From Schmidtea polychroa (lineage: Eukaryota): 64,000 bases of DNA. This document shows, one piece after another, positions 6,792 through 60,296 of this stretch. The notes below the pieces were generated by a model, which was not told where the DNA came from, did not search any database, and saw only the letters and a list, made by a program, of their open reading frames with translations. The stretch lies in assembly GCA_044892525.1 (NCBI GenBank), contig CM097885.1, forward strand, positions 227,478,001 through 227,542,000, written 5' to 3'. How positions within the stretch are numbered: position 1 is the stretch's first letter; every line of letters starts with the position of its first letter. The position numbers were made by a program, and so were the translations under genes.

Positions 6792-9075
6792 TGCTGGGGT
6801 AGTGCTCGGTTGACTTCAACCCACGTACGCGCTGGTCTAGGAGATGGGTGTCCATTTAACTTACATTAATTAAACCCACGTCAATCCTGAGCAGAACCCT
6901 GCACAACCTACACTCCAACATAGCACCCGTGAATTGCTTCACGTTGGAAATGTGCTATGTCGGCGAGACTCCAGTAAGCAGGTGAGCCCCTGCCTTAGGA
7001 CTACTCCTTACTGTGGCCTCGACGTCCTTTCCCTGACTGCCGATAGAAGGACTTACGTCGTAATCGCATCATCAAACTTCACTTATCTTCGACCCCGAAT
7101 TAGATGCAAAATTGACAATTACTTTTCGAACTGCAAAAATCCCTACTTGACCTATAAAAGCTACTCCGAGCTACTTGCAAAAAGTACTTAAACACAGAAA
7201 CGAAGGAATTGATAACCAAGAACTGTTTTATTTTGTCATCGAAATACAATACATGGATGAGTGACATATAACATATACAATTTCATAGACAAACGGTGTA
7301 AGGAAAGAGTTAGACCATGATAGTTCAGTTTGGCCGCTACTACACCGCTCGATTGCTCTATGAGGAAGTTTTCATTTCTCCCATCCTGCGTCTGCTAATA
7401 ATTCATCCAAGTCGAAGAACTCGGAGGCGTTTTCCTACCAAGTCACACCAGCGGCAGAGATGATTCGCCCTGGGTTCCCCACCGTTAGATCGATCGCAAC
7501 AGGAAGGTGGTTGAGATTAGTCGGGTTGTCCGAAGATGGTTGACTTTGTTTGGCGACCGCTCGCTCACGTTGCCTCTTTTTACGTTCTGCTCTAGACAAT
7601 TGTCGACGCTTGGTTTTCGGAAAGCTTGGTGCATTCAATGGCACTACCGATGTAGACGCGGATGTGGGCAACACTTTACCGACTTTAGTGATGACTTCTT
7701 CGGTTGGCCTGGGAGAGAGGTCGGCCTCTACGCATCCACGACAGGATTTCTTGGGAGAAGGTGGTAAATTGAACGAAGGATCGTGGTGGACGGGGAAGAT
7801 ATTGTCGGCTTCGTTAATGGGAATACTCACAATCTTCCGAGTAGTTGCTGCTTGGACATATACTTTATGTAGAGCTTCTGACTGCTCTTTGATCAAACTG
7901 CGCTGAGATCTGCTCTCATTTATTAGGGCATCACGACAATGCTCACTACGGTACAGCTTCTTCTGTACCTCTTTCATTTGTACTGGGCTAAACCATGTAC
8001 CTTCCAAATCGTCGATTTTCTTTTTATATCGACCGATCTGGGCCTGTAAATCTCGGATTATAGTGTTTTTGTCTGCGCAGGAGAAGCAGGGTTTGATAGA
8101 AGACTTCGTGCTTGGCAACATTTCGATAACTGTAATGGAGAAAGAATAATAAAGGTAAACGAAAATTGGCTAACTCTACTAAATTCTCCGTGTGGCGTAT
8201 TTATTTATTTAGTTTATAGTTTCTATACATTACGGTCATGAGGTTCAAAGGATTGGCAAGAAGAAAGCAAAATGACGGGCCGGAGGAATCCCCTGTTAAT
8301 CGATATTAAATCCGAGGATGATTTATGTGTATATGGGCTGGTAAGTGAATTCCCCCCCCCCCTTTTAATCTAATATAATAATTTATTGCTGACTAAGAAA
8401 ACTTATAAATGTATGGTCGTAACCATGTTCGCCTTTATTTCGGTCAATAGTTAATGCATGTATAACATACAGAAACGATAAACTAATTAAATAATTTTAA
8501 GTCCGCTTGACAATATAATATTCCAATTTAATATTAAGTGTTATCGATCACAAAAATGTAGAACCTAACTGACTTTACTCGCTTTGATTAATTGCATTAG
8601 TGATAATTAGTGATAATTCTAGTAGTCTAATTTGGTTTGATTGTCTGGATGGTTGAGTACCTGTAACTGTAAGTGTTTGGTTTTAACAGTAACTACAATG
8701 AGTTTACGGTTTACTTATATATGAATTTTTCGTTTATGCGGACCAATCAGAATTTAGTACCGCTTAATTTTTTAAATTAATTTGCTTTTTCCTATTTCTT
8801 TGGATATTTTACTTATTTTTCCTATTTTTATTATATTTTTTATTTATTTCTTAAATTCCTTATTATTTGTTGTATTTTTCGTTATCTTATTCGTTATCTT
8901 ATTACCTTATTTTTAATTTTCTCATTTTTATTTTTGGTTTTAATCTTTATATCTTATTTTATTGTTTCTTTTATGTCTTGACTTATTTATTTTTAAAATT
9001 TGTTGTCTTATTTTATTTTATTCACATCCTATCTGTCTTAATTTTCGACGATTATGTTTTCGACTCAGCCCAACA
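6792..9075 (-). mobile_element. Solo LTR A (2284 bp) of a giant-gypsy-related family
   Basis: Termini TGCTGGGG (6792, one mismatch to TGTTGGGG) and CAGCCCAACA (9075); 4-bp TSD ATAT (6788-6791, 9076-9079). The 5' end TGTTGGGCTGAGTCGA equals that of solo LTR B. Contains the LTR ORF and the RNA module. Confidence 0.9.
7372..8121 (-). pseudogene. LTR-encoded protein, copy A, with a premature TAG at 7435-7437 (228 aa; ancestral 249 aa)
   Basis: Homologous to ORFs at 22668, 30637, 35219 and 61598 (PCFSCADKN, EGTWFSP, EHCRD). The frame continues after the TAG as ENASEFFDLDELLADAGWEK*, matching the copy B C-terminus. Confidence 0.85.
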
Positions 9076-13627: not shown

Positions 13628-14527
13628 AAATGAGAGGGTGCACGTCGGCGGGCCCACAAGGAAGCCCACAATATCGGGCATTCAAGTCGCGTTTTGTCAG
13701 GTCTCGACCTACCCAAAAAACATAATGTGACTAAATATATAGGTTGAATTTTCTTGTGTTCCTGTTAGGATATAAGTATTAAAGGGGAGACTGCCAATCC
13801 GACGATAATTTGGTACAGTTGTACCGCGATCTGTTAAAATTAACCAACCTGTGTTAATTTCAGTACGTGAGGAAATCTATACATTGTGGCGAGAAAAACA
13901 CAACATTTGAGCGTTAGCGAGGCAAGCAATCGTCGGGTTCGAGAAGAGATACTCAAGACAATGTCCAATGAGTGTATTCAAAATAAAACTTTTCTACTGT
14001 TTAATGTAATGGCTAATAAATTTTAGTTTAACGTAATTTGAGTTTCTTACAAATCGTACAAGTACTTTAGCTTCTAAGGGACTCAAGCCAAACTGAGAAA
14101 TACCTTTAAATGGTAGTCCACGAACCCGCCGAATGCTTGACGATTATAGTGTAGAAAAATAAGCTCACTTTTCGCGAGTATTCACCCATTGGATACAGTT
14201 CTAACGTTGATTTTTAACGAGTATCGAGTGGTAAGGCAACGTTATATTCTGGGTTACGCTAGAGGGTATATTTTGGTTACCAGTAACCCACTACTAATAA
14301 GCCGAACTTCGATCATGTTTTCTCGATCTATTGCATTCAAATTGTTTCAATTAAAAATATTGTATCGAGTCTGTTAAATTCGTTTTTATCAACTATGGGT
14401 CTTATTCGGAGTTTGTGATCGATTCTGATGTGCTAAACTTCAGTTACGTTTTCTCGATGCAAGATTATATAATTTTTTGAAATGAAATGAAAATGAAATT
14501 ATTAATAAAAAAATTAAGAAAAATGTA

Positions 14528-14709
14528 ATGAGTAGTTCTAGTAGTGGAGCTCACCTACTCATGGATTTTCAGCCAGTGTACACTACTAACATAGTTTTTT
14601 CCGTTGTTACATGGATGGTAGAAAGTTAAATAATCATGAAGGAAGAGTTACTGACAAATCTTTAAGCAACCCTAGAACATTTAAACAGCACACCCATTAA
14701 ACGCCAACA
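14528..14709 (+). mobile_element. Relic LTR 3' end with partial RNA module
   Basis: GAGTAGTTCTAGTAGTGGAGCTCAC helix, ACTACTAA bulge, and terminus AAACGCCAACA identical to the end of solo LTR C. Confidence 0.55.
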
Positions 14710-14721: not shown

Positions 14722-15043
14722 TGTTGGTAACCGAATAAACCACATTTTATATATTTTACATTATATTTTCTACATATTTTTTCATTTGACTCATTTTTGT
14801 ATATTTAAAAGAAATTATTAAAATAAATGAATTTTATATCAAAGTCCACATTTTACCCTTTCGTGATGTTTCCAGCGTAACCCAGAATAATATGATGTCG
14901 CACCGCTTAATACCCTTTGAGTGATCAACGTTGATACTGTATCAAGGGTTGGAATACCAGCAAGAAGTGAGCATGCTCTTGGATACTAAAATTGTCAGGT
15001 ACTCTCAGCGGGCCCACGAACTGCCGATAAAATGCCTGTACCC
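14722..15043 (-). mobile_element. Relic LTR 3' end with RNA module (ORF-less subfamily, similar to 29935-30120)
   Basis: The reverse complement aligns over ~180 nt with 29935-30120 (tatcggcagt, gctcact, tattctgggttacgctggaaaca); candidate TGTTGG terminus at 14722. Confidence 0.65.
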
Positions 15044-17650
15044 GATTTTCCATTAAGTCCCTATTCTGCTAATTTCTTTCATCTATGACCAGGCTTCTAC
15101 TTTCATATCCCTACCCGTATAAGTTCACGCATGTAATTATTTAACTGCTAATACCACCTTACTACTTGTTTGCGCATTGTATGCCCGGTCCCACTTCTAG
15201 GTTATTTTATCTGACTACATCTATTTTCTTCTACACTGAGCCTAGGTTTTAATTAATTCTATACTGTTATGATAGTTCTACATGGATTCCACCTTAAATT
15301 AAACCCGGTCTTTATCATCTATTCCTAAATTTTAAGTTAACTGTATTCATATAAGAAATTTAAGAAAATTTTCCCTCAAGATATTGCCATGCCTACTTTA
15401 ATATCCAATTATTTTCATGCTTAATTTGGTATATTACTAATTTACTTTATTTTAGTAATTAACTTGACTTAATTGAATCTAATTGTTTCAAATTTTTTAC
15501 TTGTTATTATGTGTATAGGCGCGTTATTTAGACAACGTATTTATAAATATATAAATGTATTTCTAATTATATAAAAATATTTTTTGGACAAAGTTATACT
15601 CTTGTGGTCCATACTTTCCTCAGTTGTGACTGCTCAAAGAGACACAAATGTCAATTTATAGTATTTTTGCCTCATTAGATTTTAGCGAGCGGAAATTTGG
15701 ATTGGCCGTCGGGTAATTTTATTTAATTTAATTGCACTAACTGTCCCTTAAGAAGTATGAGGAAGATTGATTCATCGAAATGGAAAAACAGACCCAAATA
15801 AATTAACAATTATGTGCTCACGCGGTAAATTTATCATTTTGATTAATTCTCACTGGAGCAACATGCCTTTGAAATATTTGTACGCAGAATTTTGTTGTGA
15901 TCCATAAGAATTATGACCTTAATTTTGAAATGTAAATGAAATAAATGTTAGATTTGTGTTAATATTTTTGAATTTTTGTTAATATTTCTGAATTTTATAT
16001 GGAATTTTTATGACGTAACGCACGTGAATATCTAATCTGGGTCGTACTAAAGACCCGATACGACTTGTGCAGAGGTTCGACAAAAGGGATTTTGATTTTT
16101 TCGATGGGTTAATAGTTGTGGCTGTGGTAGGAGTGATTGGCTATCGACCGGGGAATTGCAATGCAAGTGTGTGGGCCAACTGGCTATCATATGGTTTTCT
16201 GCTGATGTTGGGTCATCGATGAAAATGCGGGGGGGGGGGGGGTGGAGGGTTTGGTAAAAATATATTTTTGTCTTTTCCAGCGACCTCATTGGATGGATGT
16301 TTTATTTTTGTTCTACCATATGCCGGATATGTGTGTTATGCACCGACACATTCCGTCACAATCCTAACTTTCCGTCTAAAAATCAGTTTTAGCCCAACAA
16401 TAAACAAAAATATATCTGATGTATTAAAAATATTTATTTAATGGTCACTATGGTTGTTTCATTAGAAATAATGCTATTGTTTTTTTCAAAACTAAGAAAC
16501 TTCATTGTATGGAATTAATACTGCTCACAAAACAGGTTTAAATTGTATAATACACGCACAACTCTTTTAGAGTTCCATATTTTAGAAAAAGTTATATTGC
16601 ATGAAAGAAAACTCATATAAGCGGCGAGATTTCATTCCTGTTCAAATTTGCACAAACAGGCTTTTCTCCAAACGTCCGATGCTTCTCAATGGCAATACTT
16701 TACTCAGGATGTATTAATAGCTACCAAGTTATTAATTATTATTTATTAACTTTCATAGTAAAGAAAATGAGTCACAATTATTTTATTTTTTATTAACTAT
16801 TTCTCACACCTGACACTGATCACGCACCCCGGGTAGTGTAAGAAGTATTTTGGCAATAACTGGGCTATATGAAAGAAAAGAGTTATACTCGTATCATCAC
16901 TTCGATCAATCCGGTTTATTCTACAAATTCTTTTGAGATGTGGATTAACCAATTATTGTCACTCTTGTATTGTTTTATTTCTTATTTATATGTTTTCATT
17001 TTCTTTTGATTTTTTGATTTTTATTAATTAATTTATTAATCATGCTTTATTTATTTTTACATGTTTGTTATTTTGTGGTTTAATTGATGCTTTTAATTAA
17101 TTTTGAATATACTTGGTACAGCGCGTGCCATGTTACTGGTGCGTTGGAATAAACTCAGGAATTATTGAATTTTAGCCCAACAAAAATTTGAAGTGATTTT
17201 TTTATCGTAAAAGTTGTGTTGGTAATTTGTGTATTTTGGTAATTAGTGTAAAATCAATCTATTACTATTTAAAAATAAAAATATTCAATAGTGAAAATCA
17301 AAATTTTAAGACCTTACAAGATATATAAACCCGATTGTGTAATTAAAACCCATAAAATCATGTTTCCATTGACCTTTTAATAATTACAAAATTTTCAAAA
17401 CACAAAATTTTCAAAAGTATAAAGGGAAATCTTTCCAAATTTTGAAATGTCAATAAAAATTAATCTTGTTTAAATTAATAAATATAACATTTCGTTAGAA
17501 ATAAATTATTTGAATTGTTACTAATAGATTATCTATTATACTTTATTTAATTACATTTTATAATATTTTAAAATTATTTATAAATTTAACATTTATTTAA
17601 TTAAAGTATTGATTTAAAAATCATTTTAAACATTAATTTTGCTGAGAAAG

Positions 17651-20600
17651 ATGTTATATTTATGTTTCTTCTATATTTTTCTTTGGATAATATTGATAGT
17701 TATGCCATTGATAATGTTAGCGATTTGTCAAAATGTTGATTTTGTCTCAAAATTTACACGTAAATTTCTAACTTGAAATCCAGTAAAAAACTTTCTAGAT
17801 TAGGATATGGATTATTCGAAAAACGATTATTAAGTTTTACAATGGGACTTTTATTAGGAGATGTATTTTTAAATATCATGCCAATGGTGTGGAGAAATTA
17901 TAAAAGTAAGAAACATTGATTTTTGTTTATTAATGTCTTTTAAAATGCTAATTTTATATACTATCATATAAATAAAGTGATTATATTTTAACAAAGTTAC
18001 ATGTGATTACTGACTAGAAAAAATCCTCATTTTCAACATTTAAGTTATGTTAGTATTAATTTTATCCACAAAACTGTCATCATTTTGAGACCAGCTTTGA
18101 ATAGCACTTTGGAAACTAACTTTGAATTTTCTATATGTACAGTTGATCATTGCATTCTGTGAACCTTGTTCCAATTTTTGTTTGGATGCTGCATTAAAAT
18201 AATCAAAATCAAGAGTTCTATATCTCTGATTCGAGTAACTCTCAATATATTGTCCACATTTTAATACATTGATGCTGTTCAAATTTCTTGGCAAGCTATG
18301 GCCACAAAATTGTGTGTTAGTATATGGGACTTTACATGCTATTAGAAATTGTATGCATATCGGGAAACTTTTTATTTCGATTGCTTGGCTACCTAAAACA
18401 CATTAACCGTTTGCGGACGATAGGCCAGCCGTGCTGGCCTTAAATTGCTTATACGGTTGCAAACGGTAGGCCAGCAAATTTTGGCCACGAATTTTGTTCC
18501 AGATGTTTAACAATGTATAACAATGTATTAACCAGCTGTGCCGGCCAAACTTTAAAAAAGTCATACCACAATATCAAGCATTCGTATACTAAAAAAATTT
18601 ATGCTAAAAAATATAATAAATTAATTTCGTCCGCAAACGGTTAAAACAAAATTTATATACAGTCTTTCATTATAAATATATACTATATTGGTACAGTGAT
18701 ACACACAATAATACAGAAAATCTACGTCATTATATCCTCAATTATCACTAAAATTGATTTATAACGTGTTTTACACTAAAAACATTAAAAATAACGAAAT
18801 ATATTTTGGTTTGTGACGATATTTTACTGAAAGTGGATTGGCCGTCAATGTGTTAAAAAAAACTTCAAAATATTTTATTATTTTACATTTATTTCTCGAG
18901 AAATATTATTTTAAACAAAAGATATAATAAATCATTTGGAAATAAAGCATCAGTAAAAGCCAACCAGAAATCTTTAGATATTATAGATTATATAAACAAG
19001 TTTCAAAATGTTATTATTTTAAATTGGTATTTATTTTCTAGTTTTTGTAAATTCAGTAAAAATTGTTGATAAATTGTTTGAGTTGTTGATAAAGAATGGT
19101 TATTCAAAGTCATTATATTCAAAATCTACTGATAAATTTATTAAGAATTCTAGGGATCCGTGTTTGCAAATGTTTGTGCGTAATTCGAGAAGTATAGGTA
19201 AGCTTTGCAAGCTTAGAAAAGAAAATTGTTTTTTTACAATATGAGAAACCCATTGTTTTTTTAATCGTTATGTGGATTATATTTTTCTTATATTTGAAAA
19301 TCATAGCCATGTTCAACCATTTTTGTATTATATGAACAGTTTAAACAAAAACATTGTATTCACATATGAAACTGAAAGAAAGTCATTTATCACATTCTTA
19401 AATTTGTTAATTCAGCGAAAAAATAAACATGTGAAAGAGATTTATAGAAAACAAACTGATACTTTCTATACTTCTGAAAGTTTATGTGAATTTCAGGTAA
19501 TAATGAATGTAATGATGATCAACCTAAATTTGTGTTGGTATTGCTGTACTTAGAAGGATTTACAGATTATAAGAGAAATATAAGCAAGCAGTTGGAAAAT
19601 TCAAAATATAAAATTGTGTCTAATTCATGTTATGTTTATTGATAAATCTAAAACTCTGATTGGACTGTGTTCGGATCTCGTTTATCGATTTACATGTAAT
19701 GAATACAATTTTACATACATTGAAGAGACTTACTATCAGCTCTGTATTCGAGTTCTTCAATATTATCGACCGAAGGGATTGATCAATATTATTGACTTCA
19801 ATAAAAGCGGTTTGAGTAAAATAGGCTTGCTTGATTTTAAAATATTATTAATTTTTTTTAATAATTATTGATAACGTTATATTTTTGTTAGGATTTGTCT
19901 ATAAGATTATTGAATTCGAAACGTAATGTGGAAAATTCGTTGAATACTTGTGTTTTGAATATTTTCAATAGTTTTGATATTGGATCGAATACATCTAATA
20001 TATAAAGATGAAAGTTTGTTTGTTTGCTACCCTTAGAATTTCCCACCGTCGGACCTAGGGTGCTGAAATTTTGCATGTGACCCTCATTTGACTCGAGACA
20101 GGTGTTGGGCTGAGTCGAGAATTTAATCGTTGAAAAATAAGAAAGTAGGGAAGTAGAACGTTAAGAAAAATAAAAATAAAATAAATAAAATCAGAAATAA
20201 AATAGAATAAGATATAAGGAAAATAATAATTAAGACATAAGAATTAAAACAAAAAAATAAAATTAAGAAAAGATCAAAATAGAACAAGTTGACAAATAAA
20301 TAAAGAGGAATTCAAGAAATAATAAGGAAATTAAGGAAATAAATAGAAAAACATATTAAAAATAAAGAAAATAAGGAAAAAACAACCTAAAAACAAGAAA
20401 ATTATATTAAATTAATAGAAATAAGCGGTACTCAACTCTGATTGGTCCGCACAAATAAGAATTTGATATATATACAACTACCAAAAACATTAAATTTACT
20501 GTTAACCCCGAGCATTTCATAGAGAGACATTCACTATTCGCGGAATTCTATTTCAAGGATCGACACTACTAGCCAAGCAACCGTCATTCAGAAAACTCCA

Positions 20601-23600
20601 TAACTATTCAAAACCAGTTCAGAGACCGAAATACCATTCATCACAATCATCGACATCCAACGGACCACCATTAGAACTATTTTGGAACGAACAACATTGA
20701 ATTTTGACTCAGCCTAACAATAGTAAGGGGTATTTCATTTGTTTATAGATTTATTTAAGTATTTGCAAAGCTAATAGTAATGTTAAATATTAACGATTAA
20801 ACATTTCAGTTAACTCTCTTCATTTGATTCTCCATTTTAATAACTTTAACGTATTGATGGAATTTGTATTATTTAAGTATTTCAGAATTAATAAAATATT
20901 TTTATCCAGATGTCCGTATTTTACTTGAATTAAAGATTTTATGAATTTTCATTTAACGAGTAACGTGGAGTTGAGATACTCCATGTCATGGTATGAGGTG
21001 CCTTCGGGAGCTCAGCCGGTGGACATGGAGTATTTCAATCACGCAGTTAGATTGGGCCGAAATGTGAAGGCTTCTTCACGGGTCCTATCGCTGAAGATGC
21101 GACTAAATTATCACAATGGGTTATGGTTAAAAGAATCGCTGGTAGACAATGATTTTCACAAAGATAGTCGTACGAATGAAGGGATTTTCAAGGATTTGCA
21201 CAGTGACTGAGGGCGTCGCATTCCTTTTTCTTTCGTCAAGTCGTTTTCGTAAATCTTACCCCTATTGAAAAATGAGATCCAGACAACGATTTAGTGAACT
21301 TCGTCAAAAGTAACGACATCTCATAGTACGCTTCATCTGGAAACATGGTTTTATCAATTTAATTGCGACAACGTCTATTTGCCGGACTCAGTAGAACTGA
21401 TTTCGTATGAAATTCCGTTATCATAGACCCGATGTCATCTAGCCTGTCCAGATTGCATGTCAGGTTACGAAAGTATTCTAAAACTTTAACTAACTTGAAA
21501 CTATAAAATGCGAGATTCTACGAAAACCTCTCTAATGTTATAATCAGAAAGTTTTATAGACTTAGTTATTTCAAAAATTATAAACAGGTAAAATATCACC
21601 AAATTTAATTAATAACATTTATTTCTACAATAAGAGCCAGGTCATCACTGTGTATATCCAAATTATTGAACCTGAGAGAAAATTTCGAACGGCTAAGGAC
21701 AGGTTTCATCGAGACGGCATTACATCTGAATAGGAAAATCCGAGTAGAATGACGCGAGTAGTAATATGCTTCAGCTTTTGGTAGAATTATTCCCTCGACG
21801 ATCACTGAAAAGATCCAATAAATTTCCAAACGATGGTGATCATTCACACAAGTTGATCAGGGTAAAATTCCGCGATGAGAACTGACGGCAGCATAAATCA
21901 TGATTCACATAAATCACTGTGCAGAGAAAATCATACGACAGTAGGATCGATAAAATCACCGTGAAAATGGCATACACCAAGTGAGTGAGATAAGATAGTA
22001 GCCATACACGAATCCATGTGGTGAGAGCACAGAATATCAGACTAGCATACATAGTAGTCGCGACACGTGACAGTCACAATAGGTCGATAATGTAATCAAC
22101 CAGTCGACAGCAGTATCCGCAAATTTGAACATGTGTTATGACCGATGAGATCTCCCATTAGAGTGTTAAAGTAACGGCTGATGTAAACTCATCACATATT
22201 CTCAGACAAATGGTAGACAATATGGATAATCACATTCACTACCGAATTAAAAGTGCACTTCCAATAACAAATTTCGAATCAAAAAATATGTTGAGAATAG
22301 CGATAGTAATTTGTTTTTAATAAAATAAAATAGATAACTTACAGTAAGGTTTGGTCGCATACTATAATGTTCCTCTACTAAAGCATTATTATACTGTTTC
22401 ACCAATAGTATATTTACACCCTATTAATTATTACTTCCCTCATGCATACAATTAGATCAATAGAGAGTCAAAGTTAATAACATGCGTCAAACCGATGGCA
22501 TTTGGTTAAATAAACTGTTTTAACAAATAAGATCCGTAGTAAAACCGGATTGTAGAATAAGTTTTCCTTCTTTTCGTCGGTCAAGCATCCACGAATGGCC
22601 GTGGGTCGTATCTAATTTATTCTAAAATCGTATGTTCTACATTTCATTAGTATTATTTATAGCAAGCATGCTACCAACCACTAAATCAGCATTACGGCCG
22701 TGCTTCTCGTGCGCGGATAAAAACACGGTGATAAAGGACCTACAAACTCAGATTGGACGTTACAAGAGGAAGATAGACGAGCTGGAAGGGACATGGTTTA
22801 GTCCCGCTCGGATGAAAGAGATCCAAAGGAAGCTCGATCGTAGCGAGCATTGCCGGGACGCGCTAATATCTGAGAGCCGTGCCCAAAGAAGTCTAATCAG
22901 AGAACAATCCGAGGCACTGCATAAGGTTTACGTGCAGGCGGCTACAACCCGAAAAATAGTGCAGATTCCCATCCGAGAGGCCGATGACATCTTTCCGCCT
23001 CATCACAACCCTTCCTCGAATCCATCTCCACCGTTCAAGAGACCGTGCCGAGACTGCGTCGAAACCGAATTGTCCCCCAAGCGACCAGATGTTGTCATCA
23101 CGGGTACCAGTAAGCCCCCCACTGCTAGTCCATCTGTATCAGTCACCCTTCTGCAAGTGGCATCTTCAAGCAAACCCAAGCGCAAACAACTCTCTCGTGC
23201 AGAGCGCAAGAAGAGACAGCGCGAACGCGCTACTACAAAGCCAAACATCCCATCAATAGAGGACTCAACCAACGGTGGCAACTCTCACGTGTCCATCGAC
23301 CTAACAACGGGACCCTCGGCACGAATCATATCAGCCGCTGGCGTAATGTGGGAAGAGAACGCTTCCGAGTTTTTCAACCTCGACGAATTATTCGCCGACG
23401 CTGAATGGGAGAAACAATAAAACCCCAGTGGCGGTCAGGATGAAGAACAAGGATCCGATCTATGTTGATTATGATGTTTCCTCTTCTTTCGACAGACATT
23501 AGTAAAGTGTACAGCTGAATCCTTGTGTCATAACGTTGAAATTAATAAATATTGTTGTCTTACACGTTTTCGTTCATGAATAATTAGACTTTAATTAAGC

Positions 23601-26600
23601 GGGTTGAGTAGAGAACCCGCAAGATCTAGTGAGAAATTCCCAATTTGCATTCAGCGAATCCTGGTAAGTGGTTGTGTAAGGAAATGGACGTAAGCCCTTC
23701 TATCGGCAGTCGTGAATGGGAAGTCGAGGCCTCAGCAAGGAGTAGTTTTAAGGCAGAAGCTCACCTGCTTGCTGGCGTCTCGCCTGCATAGTGCAGTACC
23801 AACGTGAAGTGATTCACGGGCACTATGTGGGAAGAAAGTTATGTGGGGTTTCACTCCAGGTTGACAAATCGGTGGCACCTTTTATTCGAGATGGACAATC
23901 AACCCTTAGACTCGTCAACGTGGTAGAGTGGTCAGCCGAGGTGTAACCCCAACACAGGTCATAAGCTATGTTTCAACCCCAGATGACCACCCATAGGGTA
24001 CCCTAAGTCGGTTTGTTTGTCTGTCCGGTCAGCAATTTACCATATAAATAATAATTTATTATATGCTTGCTACTTGCAGTTGAAAGTAAGATAATTTAGT
24101 CAAAAGTTTTCAAAGCAGAATTCAAACATGGAGAATTTGAATTTTATTTGATTAGCAAACCAATTTGCAATTGGAAAAATATAGCCAGTTATTTTTCGAT
24201 TTAAATTGGAGTGCGTTTTCGAGTTTACAAATTGTGAATTAAACATGGAATTGAAGCTGTTATAAAATTAATACTGGAACGTAATAACATTATTAAACAA
24301 AAAATTAATTTAAATGAATTATTATAATAAATGTAAACTCTGGCGAAGCCGGGTACAACAGGTAGTTGAATAAATAAATATATAAATATATATATATTTT
24401 TAAAAAGATTTAAATTCATAGATTATTTGTTAAAATTAAAATAATAAATTAAAATTATAATAAAATATTCTAGAAATTTTTAAATGTATTTATTGAAAAT
24501 AGTCTTAACAGGAGAATTATTGATTATTGGAATTAAATAAAATTTTCTTAAAATTTATGTAATTTGTTTATTAAATTTATAATATTTATAGGTTTTTCTA
24601 TCTTATCTGATAATGAGAGTAAATCCGTCGAAACATATCACAAATCGTGAGGCTTTCTAATAATTAAATCATTGTCATGTTTAATCGTTTTCCTTTGGCT
24701 GGATTAACAAGTCTAAGAACATAATGAATGGTATTTATTGGTAACATGTGATATGTGAAGCTTTGCTAATAAGATCATAGGATCCGAAAGTTAATTTAAA
24801 ATTGCTGTGAACACTTTGTAGGAACAATACCAATATTTAAAAAGTATTCATGAGAAAATTTGATAATTCCATTAGGTGAGCTTCAAACACTGATAACACC
24901 GAAATATGTTAAAAAAACAGAGAGAATGATGTTGCTTAAATGATATGTTCGGCAGAGATCAAATGGTGTTGTATTGAGGATTATAATATTGACTTTTGGA
25001 AATGATATATCTTTGGATTGAACTGTAGATCATATAGAACTGGAATATACCAATGAGAAACCAATACCAGATTTTTACCACAAATTGCTGCAATTCCAGA
25101 GTTTTGAATTCATGTTGAAATAAAAGGTGGTAATGTTCGAAAAAGATTGAATGAATGAATATTTGTTTTCGTTGTTTAAATTAAGCATCATCCTATGACT
25201 AATTTGTTTCATTATTTTTAATTACTAAAACGTAATTCAACCTAAATCTTTTAAAATACCCATGATGGAAAACAACGACAATGAGACCAGGAGGCGTAAA
25301 ACCAGAACGATACTAACTGCAAAAGATCTTGAAACGATTAATGCGATGCGTAAAGATGGTAATTCTTTCGTAAAAAATCGCCCAGAATTTAAATCTATCA
25401 ATTATAACTACTCAGAAACGATTTGTGGAGATTGAAAGGTGTAAGGTTGAGGACATTAACTTATCGACTTTGATTTAGAAGAAGGGCAGGGCCGTTTTAA
25501 TTTTTAACATGCTTTTACAGTTGCAGAGAATTATCCAAGACGACCCACTTTTAACGCAAAGTGGAATGAAGAAAAAATTGGAAGAAAATAATATTAAAGT
25601 GGAATGAAGAAAAAATTGGAAGAAAATAATATTAAATTAAAAGATGTAGAGATAAAAAGAAAAGAGTAAAAATGTACATGAAAAAGTGAATGATGAACGA
25701 AAGTTCTTTTCGATAAAATATAAAAATACTCCAAATTCTAAATTATTGCATCTCGACGAAACAGGACTTAATCTTCACACAATGATGAATTTCGGATATT
25801 CACCGAAGAATTCCCCGGTAAATGTTCTTGTGAAACCAAGAGAAAGGATTGTAAACTGAATGGTTTTGATTTCTAATGAACGTATATTAAAATATAAATT
25901 AATAGACGGGGTTTATAATGCGAGTAGTTTTCAGGATTTCATGAATGAGTCTGTGGAAGAAGGTATTGATTTTAGAAATCAAATTGTATTGATGTATAAT
26001 GTAAGATTTCACAAAACTGCTTCGAAAAGAGAGTTTTTTAGTTCAAAAAACATTGCTTTTGATTTTATACCTCCTACTCGCTCGCATTAAATCCAATTGA
26101 AGAATGTTTTAAGGTAAGATATTTTAATAAAAGACCACTACCACAGACGATATTAAACAGTTAAAAATAACGACCGACGAACATCATATATATAATAATG
26201 AATAATATATATATCAAAAAAAGGTATTTGAGAGGCGATAATGATGGTTATATCCTCGAAAGTTTATGGTGGATCAATATCCTTCAAAGGGTGATCAAAT
26301 TNNNNNNNNNNNNNNNNNNNNNNNNNNNNNNNNNNNNNNNNNNNNNNNNNNNNNNNNNNNNNNNNNNNNNNNNNNNNNNNNNNNNNNNNNNNNNNNNNNN
26401 NNNNNNNNNNNNNNNNNNNNNNNNNNNNNNNNNNNNNTATAACAAAGACAATGACTCATCCGATGACTCATAAAAACAAGTCTCCACTAGAACAAAGCCA
26501 TTGACTTATCCTAAAAATATTTAAAAAAATTATATCATTGTTCCAGCAGTGACCTACTTTTTTTGGCAAACCAAAAGTTATTGTTCCTATCAACCGATTT

Positions 26601-28792: not shown

Positions 28793-31700
28793 TCTATTAC
28801 TAAAAAAACAAAACAAAAAATAGTTAAACATAAAAATTTATTTGGATAAAATTTGACAAAAATGATAATTACGAAGTGTCTTTAGCAAAGACCATTCGAA
28901 CTATAACCTATAATCTCATAATAAGTTGTAAATATTTTATTAACAACCCCCCCCCCCCTAAAATACGTAATCGTTGAAACAAATGTTCAGATATGTATAT
29001 TTGAAACTTATAAAAGTATAAATTACATTTTTTCATAAGTACCCCTCAAACTATACATTAAGCGAGAACAATATATATACAGTTATCAAATTTAATAATT
29101 CCTCAGATCACCTAACCATTAATTATTGTTTAAATGCATTAATTCAGACTATTTTACATGTATATTGGACTTACCTTAAAATTAACTTTTTAAAATAGCA
29201 ATAAAAATATTTCGTAAAACAGAATATATTCAAAATTTTAAATTTAAATTTAGCGGCATTTGGGTACATAGCAGAATATAACTTTCATTGGTTATAACAA
29301 ATTTTTTTTTAAAAAATTAATTGTAGTTCTAATACAACCATTTCAAAAGTCCTACTAATTAATAAATAGTATTTGCATAGCATATCATGTAGTAATTTCT
29401 TTCCATATTATTATTTTCAAAAAGTGAAACAATTATTAAAGGATCGATAGTTAAACTACTTAGAATTAAATTTAAAATTTAGTTGAATTTTAAAGTACTT
29501 TATTGTTTTGGTATCTGCCCGTAGGGAAATTCCCATAGTTAAGAAATTAAATATGAAAAGTTTATGAAGATACCAACAATAGGAAGCTTTAATCAGTAAC
29601 ACGAATTACTATGCCAATGAATACAACCAGTCGTGAGGCGCATATAAAACAGGCGTAGTTCGCTTATAATAACTTGATGCAATTGTATATGGTTATGGGT
29701 GTATGTGAATAGGGATGGGTGTTTGAGACAGAAGGTGTGATCAACAAAAATGCTGATGGTCTAAAATCGACAAGCAAAACGATGGGTAATAGCGGGCACA
29801 CTCAGTCGCACACCGGTATGGTCAACGACTATATTAGACATAGGGTTCATTAGATCATTAGTTAAAGAAACGGACGATAACAAGAGCCGAACCATCAAGA
29901 AAAGTGGTTAGAAGGATAGAGACCAGGCAAAATCGGACACAAGCCTTCTATCGGCAGTCCGTGAACTCAAAGGAGTGCCCGACAATTATAGTGCGGATAA
30001 CGCGCTCACTTTTTGCGAGCACTCGCCCAGTTGATACACTACCAACATTGATCGCTCAACGGGTATCAATTGGCAGGACCATCGTTGTATTCTGGGTTAC
30101 GCTGGAAACAGCACTAAAGAGCCAAATAATTGATCATCATTAACCCGTCATACAAATTATATATTCACCATTTTGTACAATTATTTTCTGCCTTATTGCA
30201 AGTTAATTAAAAATGCCATCATCCCAGAATATATTTGGTTTCTGGGCGAAAAACTGTTCAAGGTGCATTTAACATTCTCCAAAAGATGTGAAAGTTTTCT
30301 CATTTAAATAATTTTGCGAAAATTGAAATAAATGAAAATCAGAATATGTAAAATGTTGGGCTAATAATCAATCTTCATTTTAATTTTTTTGTTGTTTTAA
30401 TTAAGTAAGTAAATGGTCAACTGAGACCGCCCACATAACACTCAAAAAGCACAGAGAACATTTTAATGATCTGGTCTCGACTAATAGTGATGGTTCCAGT
30501 TTTCTCTCCACGCCCCTTAACATGCTAATCATGTTCCAAATATTTTTGAGTAGTCAGTTAAAGATCCGATATACGTGTTCCCCTGTCATCAAAAATGAAC
30601 CAGGATAATTCCTTTCCTTAAAATTTAGTTGTGGATATGAACAGCAAATCCAATACTCTGAAAGCATGTTTTTTCTGTGCTAATAAGAATGCACAAAACT
30701 CGCTACTGAAAGAAGAGATCCTAATATTAAAAGTGAAAATTGATCGTCTGGAGGAAATTTGGTTCACTCCCTTCCAGATAAAAGAGAGGAATAAAAAAAT
30801 CCATCGCCGGAAGTACTGCTGTGACAGTCTAATCAAGGAAAGCAAAGCCCAGGGTGCCTTTATACAAGAGCAGTCTCAAGCTGTGTATCAAGTATATACA
30901 GCCCGCGAACTCGAAACTCACATTTCAGGACTCAGTGCTGACGAGAAAGCCAATATTGTTCCATCTTACCACCTGATGCCGGAACTAATGCTCCCAACGT
31001 CCCAACCCCGGCCAAAGTAAGCATATGTCTCGTGGCGGCACCATTCATAGATTTGAGTGTGCCTACCCAGGTACCGCAGTTCACAAGCCAAAGAAACGAA
31101 ATTTGTCCAAAGCCGAAAGAAACGCTAAAAAGCGGGCAAGAAAAGCCGCTGCATTGGTCCAGATCTGCAACGCTATCTATCTTCCAGACCTTACCTTGGA
31201 GCTGCTGGACGAAGCAGATATACTGTCGGCAGGAGAAAATGAGTTCGAGTTGGATGCTTCACTGACAGATCAAAATGACTGGTAAAGCCTCTCCAATTTT
31301 CTAAACAACTTAGCTCTATTTGTGTTCATACTTATGTTTATAAATCAAATGTTGCTACATCAATATAATAAATTTTCTTTGTTATTGTTTTTCATCTTAA
31401 TAAATTCCTCTTTCTGTTGGATAAAGTTAAATGAGATGGGAGCGGCTGGAGTGAACTTCATGTTCACCTTGGAGGAAAAGTGAATATTCGGACGTAAGAC
31501 CATCTAGCAGCAGTCGAGGACCAGTCCAAAACTCAGGGGGAGTAGTTGTATGGCAGCAGCTCAGCTGCCCCCTATTGTTCAACGACAGTTGGCAGCACAA
31601 ACATGACGGTTGTCATGGTCACACTGATCAAAACATCATAAGTCATGGGCGTTTATTTACAGAGCCAATCAATGATCCGCCTATCAATTCTATTTTCCGT

Positions 31701-32222
31701 TCCCCTAAACGCCAACAAAAATAATATTCATCCATCTAATTAATACAAAACTCCGAAAGTTTTTCAAATAATTTTATTCATCTATTTAAATTTTTTATAG
31801 TGAAATTTTATGAATATTTGTTTTTAAGAAAAATAATGTTATCTAAATTAAATAAAATATTTAGTATTTTTCATCGTCATGGAAAATCATTGGTGGCTTA
31901 TTGTGCTTAATTGTAGATGAAAGGTTATCAAGTAAATTTCAATGCAAATATATATCTAGTCATGATGTTCTTTAAAGATTTATTAGAATTATGGCTACTT
32001 CCAGTGATTGGTGGTGCTCTACTTTATATCGCTCTAGTTATTATGGGACCTTTCATCATCAGTGAGCAATCACCAAAGTAATCATTATTATACAAGCTTT
32101 TTTAAAACTTTTATCTATTAAGGGAATCAGGACTTCAACTTTTACTTATATGTGTTGGAATTGCTATTACTGCTTGCATTTCACTAGGAAGCAAATCTGT
32201 ACCGTTTTTTATAAAATTTTAG
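17651..32222 (+). CDS. Host ZIP/SLC39 (LIV-1 subfamily, ZIP13/ZIP7-like) metal transporter, 9 exons, ~303 aa
   Basis: Phase-consistent GT-AG exons 17651-17759, 17804-17905, 27472-27581, 27645-27764, 27817-27906, 27958-28071, 31865-31931, 31978-32077, 32123-32222 (912 nt). Motifs RLLSFTMGLLLGDVFL, GLWTIGGLITFFICEK, LIHEIPYELRDF, WLLPVIGGALLYIALV. An upstream exon is possible. Confidence 0.85.
18407..18640. mobile_element. piggyBac-type MITE (234 bp)
   Basis: Perfect 14-bp TIR CCGTTTGCGGACGA / TCGTCCGCAAACGG flanked by TTAA on both sides (18403-18406, 18641-18644). Confidence 0.85.
19120..19870 (+). pseudogene. Degenerate Penelope-like retroelement (RT C-terminus + GIY-YIG endonuclease)
   Basis: RYVDYIFLIFE...MNSLNKNIVFTYETE...FLNLLI...IYRK (YVDD decayed to YVDY) and LVYRFTC...TYIEET GIY-YIG-like motif; stops and frameshifts. 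Confidence 0.8.
20103..23954 (+). mobile_element. Solo LTR B (3852 bp)
   Basis: TGTTGGGC (20103)...CCCCAACA (23954); 4-bp TSD CAGG (20099-20102, 23955-23958). Contains an intact LTR ORF and the RNA module. Confidence 0.93.
22668..23420 (+). CDS. LTR-encoded protein, copy B (250 aa, intact)
   Basis: True start MLPTTKS follows a 3' splice site (tttatag|caagcATG). CxxC + coiled coil + basic patch + acidic C-tail; homologous to copies A, C and D. Confidence 0.85.
   Translation: MLPTTKSALRPCFSCADKNTVIKDLQTQIGRYKRKIDELEGTWFSPARMKEIQRKLDRSEHCRDALISESRAQRSLIREQSEALHKVYVQAATTRKIVQIPIREADDIFPPHHNPSSNPSPPFKRPCRDCVETELSPKRPDVVITGTSKPPTASPSVSVTLLQVASSSKPKRKQLSRAERKKRQRERATTKPNIPSIEDSTNGGNSHVSIDLTTGPSARIISAAGVMWEENASEFFNLDELFADAEWEKQ
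25262..26125 (+). pseudogene. Degenerate IS630/Tc1-like DD34E transposase
   Basis: HLDETG, MYNVRFHK (D to Y), and frameshifted PPYS.ALNPIEECF; 34 residues between the second catalytic position and E. Confidence 0.8.
27068..27136. repeat. (ATT)n microsatellite; another at ~28735-28790
   Basis: Visible. Confidence 0.95.
29935..30120 (+). mobile_element. Relic LTR fragment with RNA module, no upstream LTR ORF
   Basis: GGAC-ACAAGCCTTCTATCGGCA-GTCC and CAGTTGATAC-ACTACCAA-hairpin-GTATCAATTG; termini not found. Confidence 0.7.
30354..31717 (+). mobile_element. Solo LTR C (1364 bp, compact family)
   Basis: TGTTGGGC (30354)...CGCCAACA (31717); TSD AAAA (low complexity). Contains the ORF homolog and the RNA module. 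Confidence 0.8.
30637..31285 (+). pseudogene. LTR-encoded protein, copy C, frameshifted near 31020
   Basis: KACFFCANKN, EEIWFTPFQIKE, YCCDSLIKES in frame 1; KKRNLSKAERNAKKR and acidic tail in frame 2. Confidence 0.8.
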
Positions 32223-32377: not shown

Positions 32378-34038
32378 TTTTTACATATTTCTGAAAGATC
32401 TTGTTCACTTAATTCAAAATTAACAAGAAATTAGTGATTCTCATGATTCATCATATGATGGAGTATCAAACAATACAATTTTCAACAATCATTAGTTTTT
32501 CTTTTAGAAAAACCTTTTAAAAAAAACCTTAACACGTCTTGTGAATGTGTTGATAAAAATAAAATATGTATTAAACCAACATTTGTCATAAAATATTACT
32601 CTAAAACTATATTAACAATTAATGAAATAAACGTGGTGCGCCCCAAAGGTTTCCGGCCTATCCCAGTTAAAAACTGTGAACACCGACTTTTTTTGATTAG
32701 TATAACATCAGTATTTTTCAAACCAATTGACCAATATTTTGATACTTATTCTTTAAATGCGCCTCACATTTTTAGTTATAAAATATTGTATTTTTGATAT
32801 TTGTGCCCAAAAAAATTATTTTCTTTTTAGTCCACAAGAAAAACATGGTATTTTAAACAGTTTTTTTACATATATTATTTTGTTCTTTTTAGTCTTCTCA
32901 AATCTTACAACCGATCTTCTGTTAAAACCAATCTTTTTCATACATACATTTTTTATGCAGAACATATTTTTCTCCTAGATCGCGACTTATGACTTAATTC
33001 ACAGTAGTGCAATACATAAATGGAATTTGACGACAGATATATTAGCATTTAAAAAATTTTAAAAATGTTTATGTGTTGCGTCATACGTGCGTTTTTCACC
33101 TAAAACAAATCGGTTAAGTATAATTAAGTTCTGAGATTATTAAAATATTGTCTTGTCATCGAAGGCAAGCATGTTTACAAAATTTCAGCGAAATTGGATT
33201 ATGGAAAGTGCTTCAAAATTCGAACGAAAGATTTGACCCGAACATACAAGAAAGCAAGTTAAGAAAAACGTGATAATAATAAAAATAAAAAAGTCCATTT
33301 CTAACTAGGTGCGAAAATCTTTTGTGCGCACCACGTAATAATTTTTTTATGTCAAATTTAAATCAGCTCGTGTGTTATTTAGAAAAACAAACAAAGTTAC
33401 AATTCCAATGTATTCAATAAAGTTCTTTGATTTCGATTAAAACATCGTTATCAAGCCAAATGTCAAGAACTTCAAATTGCATTCATCAATTAAAGAGAAA
33501 ATAAAACAAAATTAACCGAGCATTCCTTAGGGGTCATAGCTACACTTTTAGCTAATAAGTTTTGACAAATATCTGCGCAGTTAATATTGAGTTAATTCAA
33601 TTCTGAAATAATTTTGGCAATACTTCATATAATTTTCAAATTTCAGTTTCAGTTATTAAATTAATTATAAAATTATTAATAAAATTCCAAAAAGTAACAA
33701 AAAAAATTTTCTTGAGCATAATAAAATGTATTAAAATCTTGGTGAATTTTATACAAAACCATTGGTTGAAAATTACAGTTTTTCCCATATGAAAATAAGT
33801 GAATCATTGACAGAAAAATATTTACCCTACCAGAAAGTGATAATGAAAAAACTGAGCGAAAGAAAGGATAATTACTATTGATAATCTAAATCATTTACCA
33901 AAATATTTCAGCACGCAATAATACTGTTGGGCGTATATGGGAGAAGTCAAACGGACATTCGTAGTGCCGCTGGCATCATGTTCCTTTAGCTCGGGCCATT
34001 CCCCCACATAACCCGCATGATTTACAAATATTCCCTCA

Positions 34039-34174
34039 TGTGAGCCCGTGATGATCTACCCACGTTGGTGCTGCTCACACGGGTCGGAGTTGATCCGCAG
34101 GTGAGCCCCTGCCTTAGGACTACTACGGACCCACTCTCAGTTCAGGTTCCCCGGTGCCTAAGAAGGTCTTACCC
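34039..34174 (-). ncRNA. Conserved structured RNA module in U5 (class unknown); second copy 60418-60553
   Basis: Three helices with compensatory changes across copies at 6919-7059, 23686-23827, 31490-31627, 29935-30073, 14906-15043 and 14528-14614. Confidence 0.6.
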
Positions 34175-34457
34175 ATACTCGTCATGCATTCTTGGTACGA
34201 CCCTGGTCCAAGGGGACGACCCACATTCTCCAATGGTCATTCCAATTCATTTATCCAGTCATAACTCATCACTCTATAACTTTTACGGGACAACACAACG
34301 AATACTATGATTATATTAATGAAATTGAGGATACATATAAACACAAATTGCAGAATCACAACACGTAGGAGAGTACAAACATGCATCATCCAAGTCATTT
34401 ATAAAGATTGTTGAGCTTGATCGCGTCGGATGAGAGATGGGTCAACGACATGTCCAA

Positions 34458-35219
34458 TTATGGGAAAACTTCCCCTTCGGCGATCATCTCGTCGATGTCG
34501 ACCGGTAACCGACGGTCTCGCACGAGCTGGACCCCTTCGGGCGAGATCACCCGGAATATCTCCTTTGTGGGGGTAGAGGGTATTGACGATAACTTCTCCA
34601 GAGAAGACTTGGCCACAGATAACGACGCCTCAAGAGCCGCGATTGCATCTCGGCGTCTTTGATTTTTGGCGGCTCGGGTCGGCCGTTTTCTTTTACGCTG
34701 TGGTTGATGGTTGTCCGCATCGGGTGCTGTAACTGATGTCACTAAAACTGGAGCCAAGATAGGGGCGGATGGACCATCCACCGGCGGCTGACAACTATAT
34801 AAGGCCGGTGCTGGAACAGGCGGCAGATAGGAGCCGTGCCCCAGACAACTGGTTGTAGCGGTGGAAGTACTTTGGTGGTGAGTTGGAAAAACATTACTGG
34901 CCTCCAAGACGGGAAATTCTCGTACCCGTTTGGCCAATTCTGCCTCCGTGTAGACCTTGTGGAGGGCTTCCGATTGCGCCTTGATCGTCAGTCTTTGACA
35001 GCGACTCTCCTCTAGGAGGCTGTCCCGGCAATGTTCCAACCGAAGAATTTTACTGCGCTCCTCCTTCATCTGTGGCGGGGAGAACCACGTGCCTTCATAG
35101 AGATCAATTCTCTTTTTCAGTGCCCCGATATATAAGTGGAGTTGTGCTATGACTGCGTTTTTATCTGCGCAGGAGAAGCATGGACGAAGATCCTTGTTCG
35201 TAGCGGTTGAAGCAGGCAT
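34458..35219 (-). CDS. LTR-encoded protein, copy D (253 aa), in the 3' LTR
   Basis: Intact ORF; splice acceptor directly before ATG (tctttag|ATG); homolog family present in solo LTRs. Confidence 0.85.
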   Translation of the reverse strand: MPASTATNKDLRPCFSCADKNAVIAQLHLYIGALKKRIDLYEGTWFSPPQMKEERSKILRLEHCRDSLLEESRCQRLTIKAQSEALHKVYTEAELAKRVREFPVLEASNVFPTHHQSTSTATTSCLGHGSYLPPVPAPALYSCQPPVDGPSAPILAPVLVTSVTAPDADNHQPQRKRKRPTRAAKNQRRRDAIAALEASLSVAKSSLEKLSSIPSTPTKEIFRVISPEGVQLVRDRRLPVDIDEMIAEGEVFP

Positions 35220-37506: not shown

Positions 37507-37559
37507 GAATGATACTCTACAGATTTTTGTCGCTCTTTATATATTACTTTTCGTCCAAT
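37507..37559 (-). promoter_or_regulatory. Putative LTR core promoter (ATTGG box, TATATAAA, Inr-like TCATTC); 5' LTR copy at 63886-63938
   Basis: TATA 37536-37543 lies ~33 nt upstream of the Inr-like A at 37510. CTGATTGG followed by a TATA-like run is conserved in solo LTR A (8715-8747) and B (20441-20475). Confidence 0.55.
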
Positions 37560-38277
37560 CAGGACGCGACTTGCATGTAATATTATTATTTATTATGATT
37601 TTTATGTTTTTTAATGTAATCAGGTATATTTTAATGACTTTTTTCCTATTTTTATTATTATTTTATTTATTTTCCTATTTTTTATTATTTTATCTGTTTT
37701 TCTTGTGGTTTTGTTGCTATTTTATTGTAACTTCATTTTTTGTTTTAATTAGCCTTATGGATGGTTTTTTATTTTTATTTTGTTTTTCTTCTTTTACTTT
37801 TGTTCATTTTTCTTAAATTTTCTGCTATTTTATTTTTTTCTTTTACTGTCGTTTATTAGGTGCCTTCCCTCTTGTCTTATTTTTCCTTTAGGGGTTTTGT
37901 TATTTTAATTAGTTTTTCTAATTTCTTTGTTGGATATTTAATTTGTTTCCTCCTATGTTTCTCGTATTTTTTATATGTTTTTATTTTATTTTACTCTATC
38001 CCTTCTTCGGTTCGCTTTTCCAACACCTTCGGAGCTTGGCCCAACAAATCACTCCGGGACCCGTTAAAATTGCGTCCCGCAATTCACATAATATCGTACA
38101 TTCGAATCGTACCTTCTTTCAGTATAACAACTAATCTCACAATCAAAATCCACACAAACATAAAATTAAAATAACTAAATAATACTTTAATTAAACAGAT
38201 AAAAGGACAAAAATAAGCAAGCAGTGGCCACTTTAGGTGACCGGATTTATACACACAAAGTTTATGAATGGTCGATG

Positions 38278-56961: not shown

Positions 56962-57326
56962 GATTGGTTCTTGAAACTCGATTATTCCTTTTAAATTTTC
57001 CAGCGATGTAGCTAAACTATGGACGGATAATTCTTCTGTTGACCCGGTTAGGTTGTTTGTTATATCGGATAGGCTTTCTCTACTTCTAGATCGACTGGGC
57101 GTATGTCCGGCTGTGGGGTTTTCTTGATCGTATATCGGTGTTTTGTGGGGTCTTTTTGCTCCTTGTGATATTCCTCTCTGCTGCCTAAATGATCGTCCTC
57201 TTTTGAGTTGATCTAATTCGTCTCCTGAAAATAATACGTCTCCTGGCTTACTTGAAGATCTAAGGTTGGGTTTATCCGTGATTCTTTCTTACTCTTTTCT
57301 GTCTTTTCACGTGGATTTTTCTACGG

Positions 57327-60278: not shown

Positions 60279-60296
60279 ATCCCGGCTGAGCCCCCA
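60279..60296 (-). promoter_or_regulatory. Primer-binding site, tRNA-Pro type
   Basis: TGGGGGCTCAGCCGGGAT, 16/18 identical to the classical tRNA-Pro PBS TGGGGGCTCGTCCGGGAT; 7 nt from the 5' LTR end. Confidence 0.85.

Follow-up and report, generated by a model that had tools for sequence, protein, structure and literature searches.

The long terminal repeats (LTRs) of giant Burro-type retroelements in a 64,000-nucleotide (nt) stretch of Schmidtea polychroa DNA (hereafter the window, which is AT-rich with 35% GC and lies in a host genome of 781 Mb) carry a folded RNA that is real and selected, composed of three modules (A, B and C). Behind these stands a fourth stem, module D, formed with the LTR end and with the spacer that precedes the primer-binding site (PBS). 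Our best reading, which we hold at about even odds, is that the fold is a primer-loading and reverse-transcription initiation platform on the element RNA, akin to the boxes of Ty1/Ty3 and the primer activation signal (PAS) of human immunodeficiency virus (HIV). A role in tRNA docking appears likely, since further stretches in some lineages, namely a D-box inside module D and a linker between modules A and B that resembles a T-arm partner, are predicted to pair with other arms of the primer. The fourth stem, the D-box and the T-arm linker are what is new here, on an expected element class and in an expected place, so that the surprise is moderate.

Structures of retroelement initiation complexes have, to our knowledge, been obtained for only a handful of systems (HIV, avian retroviruses, Ty1 and Ty3), and what pairing outside the PBS contributes is a matter of debate. 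The thousands of copies spread over several diverged lineages form a natural covariation series that predicts which tRNA arm is contacted in each lineage, and the RNA model provides a marker that ties the autonomous giants to the Gag-only and non-coding dependents with which they jointly shape the host genome. Our literature search returned no paper describing this RNA; the original Burro paper and its supplements lay outside that search and may bear on the LTR layout.

A covarying fold at the end of the LTR

Subfamilies are labelled F1 (the type of the copies at 34039 and 60418), F2 (6919), F3 (23686), F4 (the commonest PBS-linked type), F5 (29935, 14906 and 14088), F6 (31490) and F7 (further F2 relatives). 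The focal copy belongs to F2 and is laid out as follows, with coordinates given in the window:

6792..9075, minus strand: solo LTR of subfamily F2 that carries the focal copy (2284 bp, 4-bp target-site duplication, TSD)
7227..7232, minus strand: AATAAA with U/GU-rich downstream sequence, the predicted poly(A) signal of the focal LTR, 168 nt upstream of module A
7035..7059, minus strand: module A, a short hairpin whose internal loop is 4x1 and whose apical loop is pyrimidine-rich (helices 1 and 2 paired at 90-91%)
7022..7034, minus strand: A-B linker, unpaired; purine-rich in F2 and T-arm-complementary in other subfamilies
6964..7021, minus strand: module B, a long covarying stem with a 3x1 internal loop of C-loop type and an apical hairpin
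6915..6963, minus strand: module C, a lower stem, an 8x1 internal loop with CCAA (CCAAC spanned by 6943-6947) and an upper hairpin
6792..6906, minus strand: module D, a long stem-loop with the LTR end as its 3' strand, absent from the initial annotation
6833..6853, minus strand: D-box, predicted partner of the D arm (and variable loop) of host tRNA-Pro(UGG)

A covariance model recovered nine motif copies in the window, comprising the eight listed in the initial annotation, whose coordinates and strands were all correct, and a ninth at 14088-14234 on the plus strand; the training rows of the model included seven of the nine or sequences identical to them. The copies outside the full-length element sit in solo or broken LTRs, three of them with clean 4-bp TSDs. 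Modules A, B and C and the stem variants quoted for them were found in the sequence; the fourth stem and the tRNA-complementary boxes were missed and lie partly beyond the intervals given.

Pairing was scored in a MAFFT alignment of 31 copies (alignment A2; six from the window and 25 loci hand-picked from 63 clusters) from which near-duplicates, low-scoring copies and those with deletions were left out, and which has a pairwise identity of 0.36-0.90 (mean 0.57). A 36-pair structure is paired in 88.0% of cells and shows changes on both sides in 28 of the 36 pairs, compared with 33-43% pairing in slid registers and with no shuffle out of 500 that equalled the observed pairing, although the structure was derived from the same sequences on which it is scored, which favours it. 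RNAalifold, unprompted, recovered 22 pairs, 18 of them with double changes. Because kinship inflates covariation counts we simulated a tree-based null, and the mean corrected G statistic over 34 testable pairs was 11.2 versus 0.21 ± 0.69 in tree-simulated independent columns (maximum 3.09 in 300), while no individual pair was significant under this null (0/34 at E<0.05). The two top-ranked among 10,878 column pairs are both members of the structure, and the lower stem of module C (8 pairs), when aligned without gaps, is paired in 94.4% of cells. The earlier claim that pairing is kept while sequence changes is supported for the structure taken together.

G-U cells outnumber A-C cells (92 versus 41) and the folding z-score is lower for the sense strand in all seven window copies examined, which favours the sense strand as the folded one, as had been proposed; folding of single copies was unexceptional in three of the seven (z -1.0 to -1.3). 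Among non-nested column pairs of the 31-copy alignment none stands out, and the suggested pseudoknot between the loop of module B and a UGC did not hold up, the complement being present in the loop of 11 of 21 rows and the loop varying while the 3' motif is fixed. Loop nucleotides are invariant amid variable stems. The 3x1 loop of module B has CAC opposite one base and is closed by G-C in 23 and by A-U in 6 of the 31 rows. The passages of PMC9516175 that define the C-loop describe an asymmetric 3x1 internal loop, C first, between two Watson-Crick pairs; judged by sequence the module B loop would belong here, two base triads being the further, structural feature of the motif. The string CC-AA-C opposite a G run recurs in the C bulge and, in opposite polarity, at the base of module D, where the copy in F5 differs. 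Rfam gave three matches over the whole window, none of them over the motif, and no match at E<=1 on any copy.

In F2, F3, F5 and F6 loci module A is preceded, at 143-168 nt, by an AATAAA with a U/GU-rich stretch behind it; the hexamers at this distance are variant in F1, and F4 has no clear poly(A) hexamer. A TATA-like box is present about 500 nt into the F1 LTR. These predicted signals suggest that R is very long and that the fold lies within U5, in agreement with the placement first proposed, with a predicted poly(A) signal upstream and the PBS downstream. The claimed distance of the fold to the LTR end, about 90-130 nt, agrees with five copies (127, 127, 90, 114 and 114 nt) but not with that at 29935 (about 77 nt), and the 14906 copy has no LTR end behind it at all.

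Module D is a stem-loop behind module C that closes on the LTR end and a 7-8-nt pre-PBS spacer. The spacer and the PBS are seen in the full-length element of the window:

60297..60303, minus strand: 7-nt spacer from LTR end to PBS, predicted to pair with 60395-60402 and so to close module D
60279..60296, minus strand: PBS of the full-length element, exact complement of the 3' 18 nt (CCA included) of host tRNA-Pro(UGG)

We compared spacers by swapping them among 107 distinct PBS-linked U5 sequences of three spacer types. The 5' strand of module D tracks the spacer type, its duplex with its own spacer being calculated at -6.6 versus -3.1 and -2.9 with the foreign ones (74 copies), and, for another spacer type, at -3.8 versus -2.4 and -1.8 (25 copies). 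Helix D is complete only in the 5' LTR because the spacer lies outside the LTR, and with the spacer included it is predicted to terminate at the first base of the PBS.

Primer tRNA and predicted contacts outside the PBS

The PBS is a contiguous 18-nt exact complement of the 3' end of a host tRNA-Pro(UGG) gene. The tRNA genes stand in long tandem arrays (L384-L389 and L390-L419), with 2164 matches to the 3' part of tRNA-Pro.

In F2, F3 and F7 the D-box is a stretch of about 20 nt, some 45-65 nt before the LTR end, and is the best conserved 12-column window of module D (0.76 versus a mean of 0.45, nine representatives). Unconstrained cofolds pair it with tRNA-Pro positions ~8-25 (the D arm); 8 of 10 representatives keep the anticodon stem folded, and in 6 of 10 the box pairs with the variable loop too, giving a three-way junction. 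Its mean predicted binding to tRNA-Pro 1-57 is -15.0 kcal/mol versus -7.7 ± 2.3 for shuffled tRNA (1/500 as good), and versus -0.5 to -8.0 for host tRNA-Lys and -2.5 to -8.5 for tRNA-Arg; the corresponding values for the focal D-box are -17.2 kcal/mol for tRNA-Pro, -1.8 for Lys and -6.4 for Arg. When all U5 windows were scanned, with 4-6 representatives per subfamily group, the D-box was the best of 28 windows at a level reached by none of 40 shuffles. C residues in the box that face a tRNA G shift to U at differing positions, which is consistent with allowed wobble pairing, and a UA is fixed in 9 of 9 rows.

The A-B linker of F1, F4, F5 and F6 contains 7-8 nt matching the 5' strand of the T arm, and it is the best tRNA-binding U5 window in F1, F4 and F5 and the second best in F6; the match is largely lost in F2, F3 and F7 (p 0.40). 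No intramolecular partner for the linker is found among the top 30 column pairs. The predicted T-arm contact is suggestive only. A 4-bp match of the C bulge to the anticodon loop was non-significant (p 0.19-0.21), and pairing of the A loop with the tRNA D loop was tried and ruled out (p 0.82-0.85).

Several results weigh against a primer-loading platform. No D-box exists in F1 or F5, F4 has a weaker, shorter version (p 0.057), and the boxes that we see come from one related subfamily group and may thus have a single origin. An earlier window scan gave the D-box p 0.016 by z-score but 0.098 by raw energy. For the linker, the T-arm match has p 0.04, uncorrected among seven segments; after the all-window scan 10 of 40, 16 of 30, 3 of 30 and 14 of 30 shuffles were as good, and the linker pairs about equally well with tRNA-Lys. 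A per-copy best-helix test was mostly non-significant (p 0.01-0.99), and the third spacer type (seven copies) pairs equally with two spacers (-6.4 versus -6.5). The A loop, B core and C bulge, which are the most conserved parts of the fold, have no significant match to the tRNA (p 0.19-0.85), so that the tRNA does not account for what they do, and none of the tests run explains the invariant cores of the three modules. Passages of PMC3185550 indicate that the role of the PAS is disputed even in HIV.

If the fold nevertheless serves as such a platform, it might work as follows. The poly(A) signal 140-170 nt upstream would put the fold in U5, and only read-through (genomic) RNA would have it beside the PBS. 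The helix of module D with the spacer would abut the primer, the first bases copied lying inside it. Annealing of the tRNA 3' end at the PBS would free the 5' part of the tRNA, to be caught at the D-box in F2, F3 and F7 (through the D arm and variable loop, the anticodon arm being kept) or at the A-B linker in F1, F4, F5 and F6 (through the T arm). Modules A-C, with their C-loop-type loop, 8x1 loop and invariant internal loops, would act as a scaffold for Gag/Pol, proteins that non-autonomous elements would borrow in trans. It is tempting, if quite a long shot, to picture U5 as a modular tRNA clamp that grips the primer by the PBS and by either the D arm and variable loop or the T arm, with lineages trading grips, whose CCA-A bulge reads the tRNA-Pro(UGG) anticodon in codon-like fashion, and in which primer binding acts as a switch that admits to packaging and copying none but the read-through RNA of the 5' LTR; this would be a T-box-like tRNA sensor in an animal retroelement.

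Carriers of the fold and the host element

Exact copies of the B core number at least 3768 genome-wide, against one for the reversed control. The motif lies upstream of 88 of 90 LTR-PBS junctions chosen blind to it (90 of the 628 junctions in the genome), and of 29 of 30 junctions with the second spacer type (30 of 385). Behind the F2 and F3 primer sites is a polyprotein 86-90% identical to that of the window, over the first ~2300 codons compared. Other carriers encode far less: an F5 element has its own Gag (45% identity) and no pol match between its LTRs, the F4 element L318 has no polyprotein match and no 200-codon frame within 10 kb after the PBS, and another F4 element has a Gag-like frame. 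No PBS-linked F6 copy was found. That non-autonomous dependents keep the fold points to a cis element needed for copying, and the fold does persist, as the initial annotation had claimed, in elements lacking the LTR-borne open reading frame (ORF).

Non-autonomous elements of 13.5-15.5 kb (L314-L321) carry the U5 fold and PBS; some encode Gag alone (43-45% identity) and others have no long frame, and one set stands in tandem. At loci L121-L210 LTR ends that are nearly identical lead into several unrelated leaders, with the joint right behind the 18-nt PBS and 0-5 ragged bases at it, and 51 F4 loci have 25 distinct 22-mers after the PBS; this leader diversity would fit template exchange at the PBS and imprecise plus-strand transfer.

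Outside the host genome, a search with the reverse transcriptase (RT) region returned seven giant polyproteins from other assemblies, with an in-frame fusion glycoprotein and a pol 42-46% identical (P0110-P0113, P0116, P0118, P0119; L234, L235), which appear from their sequences to be Burro-like lineages. A metagenome scan yielded 80 loci, two of them Burro-like and both without U5. The RNA model run over 100 loci (78 of the 80 metagenome and 22 of 22 phage-pattern loci; 498,663 bases) gave four partial matches with E 0.18-0.84.

The remaining carriers and element features in the window are the following:

33925 to ~64425 (past the window end), minus strand: full-length LTR element (F1, Burro-type), 30.5 kb, 4-bp TSD
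33925..38046, minus strand: 3' LTR of the full-length element (F1), 4122 bp; motif 34034-34176, linker 34143-34149
60304..64000, extending to ~64425 outside the window, minus strand: 5' LTR of the full-length element; motif 60413-60555, linker 60522-60528
43087..57288, minus strand: polyprotein frame of 4733 codons with Gag, zinc knuckles, fusion glycoprotein, protease, RT, RNase H, integrase and ankyrin
20103..23954, plus strand: solo LTR of F3, 3852 bp, 4-bp TSD; motif 23686-23831, AATAAA 23544-23549
23893..23911, plus strand: D-box of the F3 copy, the same 19 letters as at locus L122, whose box cofolds at -18.2
30354..31717, plus strand: short solo LTR of F6; motif 31490-31627
29935..30158, plus strand: F5-type U5 with T-arm-complementary linker 29962-29968; LTR end ~30150, spacer present, no PBS behind
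14088..14293, plus strand: ninth copy, F5-type, decayed; linker 14122-14128
14485..14709, plus strand: partial copy (B-C-D) with LTR end
14900..15049, minus strand: F5-type copy, interrupted downstream; linker 15009-15016

The Pfam order of the polyprotein is PF03732, PF00098, PF24664, PF00077, PF00078, PF17917, PF00665, with env between gag and pol in one frame. Passages of PMC6431247 describe Burro/GYPSM1 as giant Gypsy-like LTR elements of planarians together with their proteins, and the element in the window resembles them in its ~30.5 kb length, one very long frame, env in-frame between gag and pol, kb-sized LTRs, ankyrin repeats and separate MATH/TRAF frame. Those passages cover the proteins, and the U5 RNA structure and primer are not described in them. 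We class the full-length element as Burro-type by its layout, length and predicted domains, and not by identity to a named Burro subfamily.

Both 4122-bp LTRs of the full-length element are identical (33925-38046 versus L233), which together with the 4-bp TSD indicates a very recent insertion. Accessory frames encode RING and MATH (TRAF-like) domains at 41081-42520, downstream of pol, and a further RING frame lies in the leader at 59328-59921. An LTR-borne ORF of ~250 codons (34458-35219, 7435-8169 and 22626-23420) has no Pfam match, and a protein search over 1206 candidates found zero relatives of it. Spacers between LTR ends and priming sites are unusually long, with 7-8 nt before the PBS (60297-60303) and ~5 nt after the purine tract (38047-38051), and would imply long overhangs trimmed by integrase. 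Elsewhere in the window, a hairpin at 4898-4959 matches Rfam mir-753 (E 3e-8, 50.3 bits, under the gathering score of 62), a planarian microRNA family; this hairpin and the giant element both suggest a planarian source for the DNA.

Alternative roles and known systems

Among the functions floated in the initial annotation, that of a packaging or RT-initiation signal gained support, although by way of the tRNA primer and not of an epsilon-like bulge. The main rival reading, possible if short of probable, is that modules A-C serve above all to package the RNA or to recruit Pol, as a signal that is psi-like or similar to foamy-virus Pol encapsidation sequences and marks genomic RNA versus short LTR-only transcripts, with the tRNA boxes secondary. 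The preservation of the fold in the Gag-only and non-coding elements described above speaks for this, as does the U5 position, which leaves out transcripts ended at the LTR poly(A) signal; its invariant internal loops, among them the 3x1 loop of C-loop type (PMC9516175), are typical of protein sites, and passages of PMC5035957 supply the foamy-virus precedent. Such a signal leaves the D-box and the spacer-closing stem unaccounted for, and no conserved palindromic loop for dimerisation was seen by eye in alignment A2. Packaging and primer loading are compatible, and both could hold. A role for host machinery, either in nuclear export of unspliced RNA or through U1, which would bind the GUAAG in module A and so silence the poly(A) site of the 5' LTR, is unlikely in our view. 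Here the comparison covers 147 loci, a few places being included twice: GTAAG is present in 109 of the 110 loci ending CAACA, 140-170 nt behind the poly(A) signal, whereas in the 37 loci ending CACCA the pattern found no GT donor (35 have other words and 2 were unparsed). Module D does differ between the 5' and 3' LTR, and passages of PMC5035957 report foamy-virus poly(A) control by a splice donor; on the other hand, the U5 site occurs in both LTRs, and no splice joint from module A was present among the contigs listed, whose source runs are presumed to be RNA.

The remaining candidates carry much less weight. A self-cleaving ribozyme of an undescribed kind that defines an end of the element RNA, in the manner of the hammerheads of plant retrozyme LTRs, is very improbable, even though the invariant loop nucleotides amid variable stems and the absence of an Rfam match leave room for one, and ribozymes in LTRs are reported (PMC4918200). 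No Rfam ribozyme matches at E<=1; the core motifs of known families (hammerhead, hepatitis delta virus-like, twister, pistol, hatchet and hairpin) are absent or scattered in five window copies; neither a supported pseudoknot nor an outstanding non-nested pair is at hand; and cleavage in U5 would presumably sever R from the primed template. Recombination mapping of F1 copies, too, gave crossovers spread along the LTR and not fixed at the motif, though homoplasy is possible, and F3 had too few rows and F5 collapsed to one row. The proposal of an internal ribosome entry site (IRES) that drives frames downstream of the LTR ORF draws on a leader of several kb with an upstream ORF, but we find it scarcely credible: the fold is not close to any start codon that it might serve, the first Met being 611 nt off for the nearest frame and 3457 nt off for the polyprotein frame, with 68 ATGs between, and it is kept in L318, with its want of long frames. 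Least probable of all, and largely refuted, is an epsilon-like origin, with a protein-linked primer that is copied from the C bulge and matches the LTR terminus. Passages of PMC8903280, PMC5541001 and PMC3346311 do show the same succession of lower stem, central bulge and upper stem in hepadnaviral epsilon, and the CCAAC of the bulge equals the usual LTR end; yet the bulge is constant in 37 of 37 loci that end in CACCA rather than CAACA and is thus independent of the terminus, an exact tRNA PBS, integrase and TSDs are present, no terminal-protein family occurs among the 16 Pfam hits of the polyprotein, and no Rfam epsilon matches.

We return to the primer-loading platform and its relation to known initiation systems. 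The U5-leader stem of avian retroviruses is a parallel to a folded template upstream of the primer. In HIV-1 (PMC11181671, PMC3185550, PMC11251516), whose PBS segment has a PAS/anti-PAS, an A-rich loop and a U5 stem, an 18-nt PBS likewise pairs with the 3' end of a host tRNA and the template just upstream of the primer is folded; in the passages of PMC11181671 the PAS pairs with the tRNA T arm. Upstream of the PBS in F1, F4, F5 and F6, the 7-8 bp that the linker could form with the T arm (5' strand) would correspond to the PAS, albeit non-significantly after scanning, and the CCAA bulge could meet the anticodon loop, over 4 bp and likewise non-significantly, in the manner of the HIV-1 A-rich loop. 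The HIV-1 region differs in showing no sequence or fold similarity to ours (no Rfam match), and the linker here lies ~230 nt upstream.

Ty1 and Ty3 use a short acceptor-stem PBS split in segments and a tRNAiMet primer, in contrast to the contiguous 18-nt retrovirus-type tRNA-Pro site found here, and, unlike theirs, the extra boxes of the planarian elements lie upstream of the PBS inside the LTR and match an arm that differs by subfamily. In the passages of PMC4974528 and PMC5371799, segments of Ty1 and Ty3 that lie outside the PBS and can pair with the primer at its T and D arms aid its packaging and initiation, and a highly folded 5' region is used in trans by mini-elements. A conserved segment outside the PBS that is predicted to match the D arm of the primer, here in F2, F3 and F7 only, would be the planarian counterpart.

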